Below, one piece after another: positions 21,070 through 54,277 of a stretch of DNA of 64,000 nt. Position numbers and translations under genes: made by a program. The stretch covers positions 131,998,001-132,062,000 of the forward strand of contig OX597814.1 in the NCBI GenBank assembly GCA_951406725.2, in the 5' to 3' direction. This stretch comes from Octopus vulgaris (Eukaryota). Each line of letters opens with the position of its first letter. Position 1 is the first letter of the stretch. The notes beneath the pieces are model-generated. The model saw only the letters and a list, made by a program, of their open reading frames with translations. It had not been told where the DNA came from and ran no database searches.

Positions 21070-21273
21070 TATATATACATATATATTTTGCTTTTCTATA
21101 TCTTGTTTATATCTTTTTGTTTCTACAATATTTGATATAGCTCTTTATTTACTGCTATACCTAAAAGGTGTGCATCAGAGATTCCCATAATTCTTGTTAA
21201 ATTTCTTTATGCAGCTTACATTAGTACCCTTAGTATAGTATATGTCATTATTATAATATTATCTCTCTCGCAG

Positions 21274-21789
21274 GCTGTCATCCTGATTGTACCGCTCCTC
21301 TTCAGTTACAGCTTGATTGTATCATCAGCCTGGGTAACATGTAAAAGACGCAATGACTTAAAAGTGGAATACTCCAAGCTGCTCAAGAATAACGTTGGAT
21401 ATACTTTCTATCTACCAGCTGAAATGGCTCCTGTCAAATCATGTGATCCACCACGGGCCGTTGGAGGAACACAGTGTAAATTTTTTTTCGAGAATCCTAA
21501 AGATATCCGTGATCGTTCACTCTGTCCTTGGTACCTAAACGTTACTCATGATCCAACACTTTACCCTCCATCACGTACTGAAGCAGTGTGTCGATGCACA
21601 AAATGTCGGAATCAACATTCGAATAACGTATGTATTACAGTATTCTCTAAAATGACTGTCCTCAAACGCTCAAGTACATGCATTGATGGAATGTATATGT
21701 ATAGACCGAGTGAAATTAAAGTAGCAACAGCCTGCGTGTGTGCAACTCAAATCGAAGCCAAATATACTAACAATCCATTTGAAGAATAA
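21274..21789 (+). CDS. IL17: IL-17-like gene #1, coding exon 2 (176 aa predicted in total)
   Basis: Acceptor ctctctcgCAG|; continues the signal peptide (AVILIVPLLFSYSLIVSSA); IL-17 cystine-knot motifs RSLCPWYL, YPPSRTEAVCRC, MTVLKR, VATACVC; no stops. Confidence 0.95.
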   Translation, partial: AVILIVPLLFSYSLIVSSAWVTCKRRNDLKVEYSKLLKNNVGYTFYLPAEMAPVKSCDPPRAVGGTQCKFFFENPKDIRDRSLCPWYLNVTHDPTLYPPSRTEAVCRCTKCRNQHSNNVCITVFSKMTVLKRSSTCIDGMYMYRPSEIKVATACVCATQIEAKYTNNPFEE

Positions 21790-49085: not shown

Positions 49086-49100
49086 ATGGAGTCATTTCAA
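49086..49100 (+). CDS. IL17: IL-17-like gene #2, coding exon 1 (MESFQ)
   Basis: ataATG GAG TCA TTT CAA|GTAAGTA, a phase-0 donor that completes the signal peptide MESFQFVNYFLLNFILTVSSA. Confidence 0.8.
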
Positions 49101-49136
49101 GTAAGTATTATCTGATACATAACTATATGTGTGTGT

Positions 49137-49167
<31 letters not shown>

Positions 49168-50069
49168 CGAAAGAAGGAGAGAGAAATACAAGTTTATATG
49201 TTGTTATTTTTACCAGCCTTATTTGTAAATGTAGGGCAATTAGACTTCTCCCAGAGAAAGTAAAGCTATAAATATAATTTGTTAAATATATAAAATTTTA
49301 ATTATTTACTATTCATTAGAAATGCGGCGGTGTTTCAGAATAGCTATCTCTACCTTCTGAGGAGCAAAAACAAGCACGGAAATAGGGGAGGCGGGCAGAA
49401 ACTCTGAGAAAAAATTATTCTTTCAGAATCTTAATTGCCGTTGTATGAAATATGGGATTATGGAAAAAAAATGAGAGAAAAAAAAGACCCACGTAATTCC
49501 TGCCCTTCTTTCTCAGCAAATAGTGGTAGGTCTTCCGTATGCTCGCTATATGTGACTTTTAAGTCTTGTTAGGAAGTTGAACACTTTTGCAGAGATGTAA
49601 CAACATGTATTTAGAAAGCTTACCATACGTTGATATCTGCCTTCATTCTAACACGGAATTTTTCATTGGGTGTTTTTCTGTCTCGGTTGCGGCCAGCCAC
49701 TGAATGCATTCATGATAAAGGTATTAACTGATATGTTGAGAATTAAGCAATGCCTGTGCCTCAAGCTTTTTAAAGTTAGGAAAGGCGTTGGATAGGACCA
49801 ATTTCAGTCTATGAACAACATACACTCCTCCCCAGTAAACGAAACAAAACTGGTTAACATCAGTGCTAACAAACGAATTTTTCCTTCTAGAGAGGTATCT
49901 AAGCAAAGACTAGGTATCTCTTATACTCAACTATTGGATGGCCACTGACTCCACTGAATCGCCCTTTGACAGGCTTTGTAATGTTGTTGGTTTTGTCACG
50001 GACGGCCTTTCCATGCAACAAGTTTAACTAGATTAGTTAATGCTATCCGTAGCACCTAGAATAATTTGT

Positions 50070-50247
50070 CATACGTACATGCATGCATATACACATACAT
50101 ACATACATACATATATACATACATACATACACACATACACACATACACACACATACACACACATACATACACACATACATACACATATACATGCACAAAT
50201 ACATACACACATACATACACACATATACACATACATACATACATACA

Positions 50248-50281
<34 letters not shown>

Positions 50282-50368
50282 CATACATACATACATACAT
50301 ACATACATACATACATACATACATACATACATACATACATACATACATACGTACATACATATATATAG
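50070..50368. repeat. (TACA)n/(CA)n microsatellite
   Basis: Directly visible. Confidence 0.95.
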
Positions 50369-50595
50369 GTACACTTAAACAAACACATATGCATATTTCT
50401 GTTGTGAAAATTTTACATATTTTCTAAATATTTGTTGATAGAACGGGCAAGGTGTCCGAAAAGTCATATTTTAGTCCGAAGGGTGATATTTGCAGTAAAA
50501 AAAGACAAAACAAAACCACGCCAAAATCATTAATTAGGAAGATTTAGACCAATCATGCACATTTTATGCATACCCTACCTACCCGTAACTTGTCA

Positions 50596-51011
50596 ATATA
50601 CATGATCTCGCATTATATAATATTATATGAATATATATTATCTCGCATTATATAATATTAGATGAATATATATGATCTCGCATTATATAACATAAGATGA
50701 ATATATATGATCTCGTATTATATAATATTAGATGAATATATATGATCTCGTATTATATAATATTAGATGAATATATAAGATCTCGCATTATATAATATAA
50801 GATGAATATATATATGTTCTCGTATTATATAATATTATATGAATATATATGATCTCGCATTATATAATATAAGATGAATATATATGATCTCGTATTATAT
50901 AATATTAGATGAATATATATGATCTCGCATTATATAATATTAGAGGAATATATATGATCTCGTATTATATAATATTAGATGAATATATATGATCTCGTAT
51001 TATATAATATT
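50596..51011. repeat. 35-bp minisatellite, 12 copies
   Basis: Unit tgatctcgcattatataatattagatgaatatata; tctcg recurs every 35 nt from 50606 to 50993 (one 37-nt unit). Confidence 0.95.
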
Positions 51012-51788
51012 CAAAATATTATATAATATTAATTTAGTTTTGTTCAAACTTCAGTATGAATGGTAAATCTAGAGTGTGAGATATGTTGGAAACAAACAAT
51101 ACATGCCACAATATTTGGTGCGAATATTTCTAATGTTAATTATTACGCAAGTACATCAATTCCACTTTCGAAATATCCACAATCAGTAATTCATATGTCA
51201 AATAATATTGTATGTTGTATATATGGATTGAATATACAAACTATGTAACAAAATATTTCAATTTAATGCATATTTGTAAGACAAAGATGATATACATAAA
51301 ATTTAAAGGTTTTCAAATTTTATTATTGTTGTGTGGAGGTCCCCAGACGATGAAGTAGGCTAGCCCAAAACGTAGATACAGAGGGAGACGTCTAGACGCC
51401 AAGGTAGACTAGAACGGAGTAGTGTTGAGGAGTTGAGTAGAGATAATTCGAACGTGCGACATAACAATTATAAATATGGAATCCATTTCTCTAACCTGCA
51501 AATATAAAAACAAATGTTTGAGTGTCTGTATTTGTAACAGTAAATAAACATATACATACACAGGATCAGTGTGACATATTAGACTACGTAGACAACAGTC
51601 AAGAACGCTAAAATCTGGGGGCACTGCACAAATTCTGAACTACTTGAAATTTCTTAATGCAACAAAAACACGAAATCGCAGTAAGAAAGGGAGCAAGAAT
51701 GATGACTCCTGGAACGGAGGAGAACAGAGGAAAGGGTTTTAGTGGGACGGATAAGACGAGAAGGTTTTGTGGAATTATGAACTGTCAC

Positions 51789-52075
51789 ATATTCTGTTGT
51801 GTCTGGGGAGAGTCATTTTCTTTTTGTGCCTTATAAATTTAACACACACACACACCGATAAAATTTCCACTTATTTTTACTTTTATTTTTCTAAAATTTT
51901 CGTTAAGATGCAACGAAAATTTTAGGAAAATAAAAATAAGAAATAAGTGGAAATTTTACCGGTGAGTGTGTTACATTATAAGACACAAAAAGAAAATGGC
52001 TCCCCCTAGATACAACAGAATATGCTTCAACACACGATCTCATATAAAGAATCTTGCAAACCAAATCCAAAACCG
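51789..52075. mobile_element. Fold-back (MITE-like) element, centre-deleted copy of 14431-14765
   Basis: Same arms and the same downstream gcttcaacacacga..gaatcttgcaaaccaaatcca tail. Confidence 0.85.
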
Positions 52076-53140
52076 AAATTGTCACTTAATTTGTCGGAAA
52101 ACATTTCGAATTTTTTCTCGATACACTAAAGACATTTATTCAGCGATAAGCATGATAATAAAAGCTAACAGTAATATCGCAACTGCATTTTTCATTTGCT
52201 GTAAAAAGAGTGGTGACTGAAGGAATTTGTGTGAACAATTGTTAAAGGGGACTAGGTGAAATGGTGTACAATGTAGGACTACAAGAAGGAAGTACTCCGT
52301 GGAGCCGATATAAGGAGAGTACTTTGCAGAGCTCTGAGAAAGGACCAGTCTTGCAAAAGCCTGAAAATTCCTGATGACAATACTTCAGTACTGTAACACT
52401 AATTTATAAAGAAACCGTTAAAACATGTAATTTCAGTAATTTCTTGGTTACCTTCAGCAGATTTGCACAGTTTGTAGTGCAATTTTTCGCAGTTTAAATG
52501 TAACTACCTTTATACTTACTTACATAAACACATTTTGACGAAATTAGGAGTGTCGACCTGTGAATTCACACGTTTATATGTCTGCCTACTACCACTCTAA
52601 ATGCTTTTGTTATAAATCTATTTTGTTTCTCTCACTTCGTTTCTCCCTTACCTTCATAATGACAATGGCTTTACTTATTATTAACAAACAAAAGAAAAAA
52701 GAAAAAGAGAGTATCGTATACTAGCTCAGTGTATATTATGTCATCCGCCAGCTCTCTTCAACACTTTAAATGACTTTTCATTTAAAACTTTATCGAAAGT
52801 TATATCTTATTCAACTCTATAAAATAAATAACAGTAATATTAGAAATATTAAATTTCTAAATATCTCATAGAGATATGTGCGGTGGTGGGGCGATAGAGT
52901 GGTTGTATACTGTCAACTTAACGTGACAGTAAGGGAAGAGGGGGGATTACACCACCGCTGTTTAGCCCTAGGAAGCATCGACGCTTACTGTCGTCCTTGA
53001 CACATTTCCTGTGTCCTTATATATTTACGAAGGGGAGACAAACACCCCCAACAGCTAGGCTTGTTCGTAAACTTATATATATATATGTATATATATATAT
53101 ATCTGTAAAATAATGTGTGACAATTATTCAATAGCGAAGA

Positions 53141-53198
53141 TAAAACTCTGAGTTTCAGATGCCGAGGTGGAAATCCACAACACCATCTCTTCGGATAT
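53141..53198 (-). ncRNA. Variant hammerhead-like motif
   Basis: CCGAAGA gatggtg..cggcatc t GAAA CTCAGAG TT; U4C core change, poor helix I. Confidence 0.35.
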
Positions 53199-53226
53199 AT
53201 ATATCGTTGGCGATTTTTAATATTTT

Positions 53227-53400
53227 AAAATTAAAAACGTTTACCATCTCAACTATTTCCCAGACCGACGGTCTGTATGTCTGAAAACTAAAAGGCTGTC
53301 CCACTGAAGAAAGCTGACCTTCAGCAAATACTTTTTTTCTGGAAATAGTTAGAAACCGTCGGTCTGGGAAATAGTTGAGATGGTAAACGTTTTTAATTTT
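53227..53400. repeat. 45-bp perfect inverted repeat
   Basis: 53227-53271 is the reverse complement of 53356-53400. Confidence 0.9.
53299..53369 (+). ncRNA. Type-I hammerhead ribozyme motif, sense strand of IL-17 #2 intron 1
   Basis: tccca CTGAAGA a agctg..tagtt a GAAA CCG-t-CGG TC tggga: 5-bp helix I, canonical core, GUC site after 53364. Confidence 0.7.
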
Positions 53401-53548
53401 CATTCCTTTCGTGAATTTATCCTTTTTTGTGGTCTTGAGATTTCTACTGCTCTTTCTAGAACAACGCTTTCCTATTTGGAAGGCTCTTAATGTATTTCTA
53501 CATGAATTAGGCCACTGGTAATAATAATTTATTATTTTATTATTACCC

Positions 53549-53629
<81 letters not shown>

Positions 53630-53758
53630 GTATATGTATATGTCTGTGTGTGTGTGCATGTGTTGAAAATGAATTATCTTAAATGTATTTATTCGGACAA
53701 ATATATATCATATTGAAAGTAAAATACACCACTTGATTAACATTATTTCTTTTCACAG

Positions 53759-54277
53759 TTTGTAAACTACTTTCTCCTCAACTTTATCTTGACTGTATCT
53801 TCGGCACCAACGCAGACCAAATGTGAAATACCAACGGACCTGATAGTCCATTACAACAGTTTGTCCGGTGCATCTATTGGCAAAAAAATTTTTCTATCAG
53901 CTGAAATGGCTCCAGCAGGAAGTGACCAGCAACCACAAACCGATGGGGATAAAACTTGTCCAACATCTCTGGTTTCTACTAATATCGTCCGCGAACGTTC
54001 AACCTGCCCTTGGTATCTTAAAGTTATCAATGATTCATCAGTTTTCCCCCCATCACGTACTGAAGCGGTGTGTCGCTGTAGAAACTGTCTAGGCTCTGAC
54101 AACAACCACCAATGTGTAACAGTATATACTAAAACGACTGTCCTGAAACGTACAGGTAAATGTGTTGATGGATTGTACGTGTATAGACCAAGTGTGATTC
54201 AAGTACCCACAGCCTGTGTCTGTGCAAAGAAATTCGATATCATTTCTAGCGAAAATGACCACCTTTACGAGTCGTAA
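53759..54277 (+). CDS. IL17: IL-17-like gene #2, coding exon 2 (177 aa predicted in total)
   Basis: Acceptor tttcttttcaCAG|; motifs RSTCPWYL, FPPSRTEAVCRC, TVLKR, VPTACVC; no stops; clearly paralogous to 21274-21789. Confidence 0.95.
   Translation, partial: FVNYFLLNFILTVSSAPTQTKCEIPTDLIVHYNSLSGASIGKKIFLSAEMAPAGSDQQPQTDGDKTCPTSLVSTNIVRERSTCPWYLKVINDSSVFPPSRTEAVCRCRNCLGSDNNHQCVTVYTKTTVLKRTGKCVDGLYVYRPSVIQVPTACVCAKKFDIISSENDHLYES

Follow-up and report, generated by a model that had tools for sequence, protein, structure and literature searches.

Hammerhead ribozymes have been described in several kinds of mobile element, among them the Penelope-like elements (PLEs). In PLE hammerheads, as reported by Cervera and De la Pena (PMC4209133), a single minimal motif gave no detectable cleavage and dimers cleaved little, the G10.1-C11.1 pair was named as highly conserved, and hammerheads lying 100-700 bp apart on opposite strands were noted. 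The hammerhead of an anole PLE required the element's protein, and none of the RNA-seq reads ended at its cleavage site (PMC11167929). PLE insertions are often partial tandems, carry an inverted 5'-truncated copy at their 5' end and favor microsatellites such as (TA)n (PMC8557442, Craig et al. 2021). Retrozymes have been described in mussel and coral (PMC7229834, Cervera and De la Pena 2020), and a preprint makes the case that the retrozymes of animals descend from PLE pLTRs, and puts 42-44% of Xenopus retrozyme copies in introns (10.64898/2026.07.22.740005).

The 64,000-nt stretch of Octopus vulgaris DNA analyzed here (the window) holds a 5'-truncated copy of an ORF-less hammerhead repeat of about 449 nt, likely a non-autonomous PLE of retrozyme type, with a 46-nt antisense arm that is very probably a routine by-product of insertion and would clamp the cleavage site in the pre-mRNA of an IL-17 gene (Table 1). 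In its core letters, 5-bp helix I and long helix II, the family resembles the minimal or variant type I hammerheads of PLEs (PMC4209133; Lunse et al.). It also shares with them a palindrome at positions 15.2-16.2 closed by a very small loop, a predominance of single copies with some opposite-strand pairs and, in the window's subfamily, an extra A that stays unpaired after A9. Unlike the PLE hammerheads of those accounts, the octopus motifs have a helix III palindrome of 8-10 nt, and in every subfamily seen (about 20% apart) helix II opens with A-U and an additional A precedes G12. The G10.1-C11.1 closing pair of helix II was found in none of 43 parsed copies (51 examined, eight unparsed), 41 of which have A/A instead. 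Judged by sequence, the motif is built like a PLE hammerhead and fails one of its defining features.

Table 1. Features of the IL-17 locus and of the hammerhead repeat in its intron (positions in the window)
Feature	Position	Strand	Basis or detail
IL-17 exon 1, coding part (MESFQ)	49086..49100	+	tblastn of P0001 against the window; donor GT at 49101
IL-17 intron enclosing the element	49101..53758	+	4658 nt, GT-AG, phase 0; tblastn and RNA-type contig aligning from 53759
Inverted arm, family unit positions 208-253	53227..53272	-	perfect reverse complement of 53355-53400
4-nt overlap (microhomology) of inverted arm and truncated 5' end of main copy	53269..53272	.	sequence, junction analysis
5'-truncated copy of the ~449-nt non-coding repeat, from unit position 123, with ~35-nt internal deletion at 53507/53508	53269..53552	+	genome similarity search, tandem-defined unit
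Type I hammerhead motif	53299..53369	+	helix I 53299-53303/53365-53369; CUGAAGA 53304-53310; helix II 53312-53316/53346-53350 and inner hairpin; GAAA 53352-53355
Palindromic helix III (4+1+4 nt), predicted cleavage after C53364	53355..53364	+	sequence and folding
(TA)n/(TATG)n microsatellite at 3' end, likely insertion target	53553..53650	.	sequence; most family copies end alike
IL-17 exon 2, coding region	53759..54277	+	Pfam PF06083 and tblastn

The ORF at 53741-54277 encodes IL-17 by its match to PF06083 and is 98% identical to P0001, an annotated protein named Octopus sinensis IL-17-like. Because the N-terminus of P0001 located exon 1 upstream by tblastn on the window, the motif can be placed inside the IL-17 intron on the sense strand, as the initial annotation had it; an exon 1 at 52350-52470 was dropped in favor of this tblastn placement. 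The predicted cut lies 4264 nt past the donor and 394 nt short of the acceptor AG, in agreement with the distance of about 395 nt given earlier. Four sequencing runs, all represented by assembled contigs, were compared with the locus. A contig of the putative RNA run X3 begins aligning exactly at 53759, and its 221 preceding letters have no placement among the matches listed. Coverage in X3 sets in about 7-12 nt beyond the predicted cut, which we rejected as a sign of cleavage because the DNA runs fall off at the same place; X3 has no coverage over the ribozyme core and is uninformative on expression. At 53290 and 53338, reads amounting to about single-copy depth in the DNA run X17 do not carry the family letter (not clear in X18 and X20), a weak hint that this copy of the element may be shared with a lineage about 1.4% apart. 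Elsewhere in the same intron, a contig of X3 matches 52257-52555 without a single difference, and depth rises at approximately 52350-52465; this stretch could represent pre-mRNA, DNA or an unannotated exon. Tandem repeats with a period of 35 nt fill 50526-51080 of the intron. The window also contains, at 21136-21789, another IL-17 gene that has diverged further, with about 40% identity to P0001.

The window copy retains all of the core letters (CUGANGA, GAAA and UH), with U16.1 at 53363, C17 at 53364 and the GUC site at 53362-53364. The core had been called intact, which is right for these conserved letters and does not extend to helix II, which lacks its usual closing pair and starts after the A/A juxtaposition. 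A strict hammerhead descriptor matched once in the IL-17 intron compared with no match in 300 block-shuffles, the motif by itself folds unremarkably (z = -0.66), and Rfam at the gathering threshold gave no match anywhere in the window. It had also been proposed that a 1-nt helix III loop makes dimerization necessary. A 1-nt loop cannot close, and folding of the monomer instead gives 3 bp with a GUC triloop; the palindrome itself does point to cleavage as a dimer, in which 4+4 bp flank a U-U mismatch. The isolated helix III 9-mer is predicted to form a self-duplex (-11.3 kcal/mol) and no monomer hairpin, and on these models the palindromic helix III is consistent with dimer cleavage.

The repeat is dispersed: of 875 first-look candidates 40 were scored, and these include dozens of places with 90-97% identity. 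A 23-mer of the family has 47 exact matches, two of them the window's own arms, a 25-mer of the sister subfamily has 127, and the family comprises several hundred or more copies. The unit length of about 449 nt was set by tandem duplications, in which units join head to tail without a coding middle; the RT + GIY-YIG ORF that an autonomous PLE carries between its pLTRs is absent. Copies are truncated to variable extents at the 5' end, while their 3' ends cluster at unit positions 340-360 or beyond 420, and most of the printed copies, by eye and uncounted, run into (TA)n at the 3' end. Two hammerheads in succession occur only at L032, plus a deleted pair at L044, among 50 loci, and the arrangement is absent from the window locus. 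Judged by its identity of up to 97% to unlinked copies, the insertion in the window is young. The animal non-LTR retrozymes (PMC7229834; 10.64898/2026.07.22.740005) are likewise dispersed monomers of a short, non-coding, AT-rich unit that has head-to-tail junctions and carries a single type I hammerhead, but the octopus unit is 449 nt long rather than the about 220-400 nt given there, and its tandems are mostly partial. Our literature search, made on article listings rather than on repeat libraries (Repbase, Dfam), found no paper on this family.

Pairing is well kept across the family. In 36 aligned copies, hand-picked out of 58 distinct spans, 96.6% of 503 cells are paired, compared with 16-43% in slid controls. 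Two-sided swaps were found in helix II (A-U/C-G, 23/8) and helix III (G-C/A-U, 30/6), which represent few inherited events, and helix I shows no covariation. The helix III palindrome is retained with zero, one or two central letters in three variants. This covariation of helices II and III between subfamilies makes it likely that selection acted on the fold during the mobile phase of the family. The window copy differs from the column majority at nine of 236 columns (median of seven in 18 close copies), seven of its changes being private. Helix II holds three of its changes, and a C-G pair is lost to one. By this count the decay of the window copy is ordinary, proceeding at the same rate as in other copies.

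The genome was also searched for an autonomous partner. Of 6136 candidate GIY-YIG places, 150 were scored, and intact open frames of 781 aa recur among them, one of which was shown to carry RT and GIY-YIG domains (the RT below its curated cut-off). The unit had no meaningful match to 30 of the 150 scored loci, apart from one match of 22 nt, or to two full-ORF loci, and no PLE ORF was found at L134 between family matches 1.9 kb apart. Because no autonomous partner matched, we infer PLE mobilization from architecture. Some GIY-YIG loci carry other hammerheads with a palindromic helix III, present at L082 as an inverted pair, and the hammerhead of L077 has unpaired letters on either side of helix II. 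The many intact 781-aa RT + GIY-YIG frames, L139:1664-4009 among them, likely represent a young PLE family; a hammerhead scan of two such loci found none.

The architecture in question is that of PLE insertions (PMC8557442; Frangieh et al. 2024, PMC11167929), namely 5' truncation, partial tandems, an inverted 5' piece at the truncation, (TA)n targets and two preferred 3' ends. It departs from those accounts in that the octopus unit has no ORF and no matching autonomous element was found, the window arm is short and ends internally, and the two 3' ends are about 85 nt apart versus 30-40 nt in PLEs. Frequencies were taken from two samples of loci chosen by similarity to the ribozyme region, which somewhat favors inverted loci: one of 50 loci (61, less 11 duplicates of the same place) and one of 24 from the sister subfamily (30, less six duplicates or loci seen before). 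Five loci picked for their layout (L134-L138) were excluded. An inverted 5' piece was present at 17 of 49 other loci in the first sample (18/50 with the window) and covered the cleavage site at six (7/50 with the window), and 13 of the 50 independent loci, window included, are partial tandems. In the sister subfamily 15 of 24 loci are inverted and six have both arms over the cleavage site, which brings such arms to 12 of 73 loci other than the window. Four of 33 inverted loci have no junction within 60 nt; among the 29 resolved junctions, 13 overlap by 1-6 nt, the 4 nt of the window being one of these. The simpler of the explanations first offered for the arm, an inverted piece from PLE-type insertion, thus matches the genome pattern of inverted 5' pieces and short junction overlaps.

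On this reading, an AT-rich stretch of the intron would have been cut by a reverse transcriptase/GIY-YIG enzyme that a PLE supplied in trans, and the RNA would have been copied from its 3' end as far as unit position 123. Priming at a U-rich tract near unit position 253 would have given a second cDNA, joined to the first through the 4-nt microhomology.

An arm that arose after insertion, by local fold-back or a template switch in replication or repair, or that was later homogenized, and that is neutral, seems to us an unlikely origin. It would account for arms that are 100% identical despite the seven private changes of the main copy; at 32 other loci the arm and its main copy differ by 6.5% pooled, so that 0/46 differences in the window has P of about 0.03-0.05. 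The junction also forms a small palindrome that folding predicts could fold back, and the outer end at unit position 253 is a minority one, most inverted pieces ending near 340-360 or beyond 420. The identity of the arms and this minority end weigh against the by-product reading. However, the window was selected for its perfection, and a single perfect case is no surprise among 33 inverted loci. Short arms with no differences occur at two other loci (30 and 18 nt), short inverted pieces ending at unit positions 250-284 are found at L005, L047 and L060, and the arm of the window is located exactly at the 5' truncation point, all of which count against a later origin.

The initial annotation described 53227-53271 as an exact reverse complement of 53356-53400, which we confirmed with an extension by one base to a perfect repeat of 46 bp. 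The 191-nt stretch 53220-53410 folds far better than expected (z = -13.7), with the arm paired over helix III, the GUC site and helix I', and folding supports the earlier statement that the hairpin and the ribozyme fold are mutually exclusive. The computed probability of the active monomer fold is 5e-6 for the motif alone, 3e-4 for the intact copy L003 and 5e-21 with the arm; because the energy model omits core and tertiary contacts, only the ranking of these fold shares is meaningful. The arm duplex is computed at -77.5 kcal/mol, with an ensemble gap of 28.8 kcal/mol favoring the hairpin over the active fold. The arm precedes the ribozyme in the transcript and, made first, would pair with all three of these elements as soon as they appear. 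A fixed hairpin is the predicted state, that is, a one-way block of the ribozyme. In a genome scan for exact motifs 60-120 nt apart, the same short-hairpin spacing was found in the window only; the exact geometry is unique under this tight pattern, but arrangements of this class recur elsewhere. Editing of double-stranded RNA is extensive in octopuses, and A-to-I editing or small RNAs are possible side effects of such a hairpin. Rearranged Drosophila Penelope copies similarly carry inverted repeats made by transposition and able to form double-stranded RNA, although those described are long and match siRNAs, versus a 46-bp stem in the window (PMC3681739).

Even without the arm, the ribozyme of the window copy is predicted from its fold to be nearly inactive. 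There is no second sense copy in the 64-kb window and no partner in cis, and a lone dimer-type hammerhead with private mutations would be expected to cleave little or not at all. The insert would then be neutral and removed along with the intron. In having a self-cleaving-type motif on the sense strand of an intron, the locus resembles the amniote intronic hammerheads and CPEB3, but those are described as conserved gene features (PMC6765202), whereas the window holds a young multi-copy insertion that is decaying and predicted to be occluded.

It has been suggested that the arm could neutralize a self-cleaving insert in a cytokine intron. The corresponding account, in which the host retained the insertion since the arm neutralizes a ribozyme cutting IL-17 pre-mRNA, as part of a survival filter on sense-intronic copies, is in our judgment highly improbable. 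It draws on the position of the arm, which covers helix III, GUC and helix I' and so excludes the active fold, on the under-representation of retrozymes in introns reported for two Xenopus genomes (10.64898/2026.07.22.740005), and on upstream complementary inserts that can block ribozyme assembly in vivo (PMC2817708). Against it, PLE hammerheads of the dimer type reportedly cleave poorly or with help from a protein (PMC4209133, PMC11167929), and the window copy lacks a partner in cis and has damage in helix II. No special neutralizing device is indicated, because arms over the site occur at 12/73 other loci and hardly any ribozyme activity is predicted here even in the arm's absence; with such arms elsewhere, no selection is needed to explain one case. 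A variant of this account, equally hard to credit, would have the arm gained after insertion and kept for stopping a trans-dimerizing or protein-assisted hammerhead from cutting IL-17 pre-mRNA, with inverted arms acting as a survival filter genome-wide. If true, arms would let ribozyme-bearing retroelements persist on the sense strands of introns, which would explain the survival of self-cleaving elements.

A regulated switch between hairpin and ribozyme that tunes IL-17 output, a conformational switch having been raised initially, can be set aside as extremely improbable because the arm is made first and its duplex is favored over the active fold by about 29 kcal/mol, and because the ribozyme decays at the rate of other copies in a young insertion, with only the mutual exclusivity of the folds and the heavy editing of double-stranded RNA in octopuses to recommend it. 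The preferred reading of the arm as a routine insertion by-product matters little for IL-17 biology, this being one copy among several hundred or more. The modest gain is the description of a hammerhead-bearing, retrozyme-like family in an octopus, with its variant helix II.

Other hammerhead-like motifs lie in the window. At 53102-53198, on the minus strand and antisense to IL-17, is the remnant of a second, unrelated high-copy repeat whose hammerhead-like motif is severed in helix I. It has a CCGAAGA core, with C at core position 4 in 10 of 11 copies, and a 4+1+4 palindromic helix III. Forty of 542 candidates for this repeat were scored (91-97% identity), and 15 short opposite-strand matches alongside the scored copies show the same inverted habit. 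An unpaired nucleotide between helix II and G12 is seen in the main family, in the second repeat and in L077, and may be common to octopus PLE-type hammerheads. A third hammerhead-like motif, from 14268 onward on the plus strand, has a CCGAUGA core, a short helix II and a 4+1+4 helix III, and resembles one beside the GIY-YIG locus L078.
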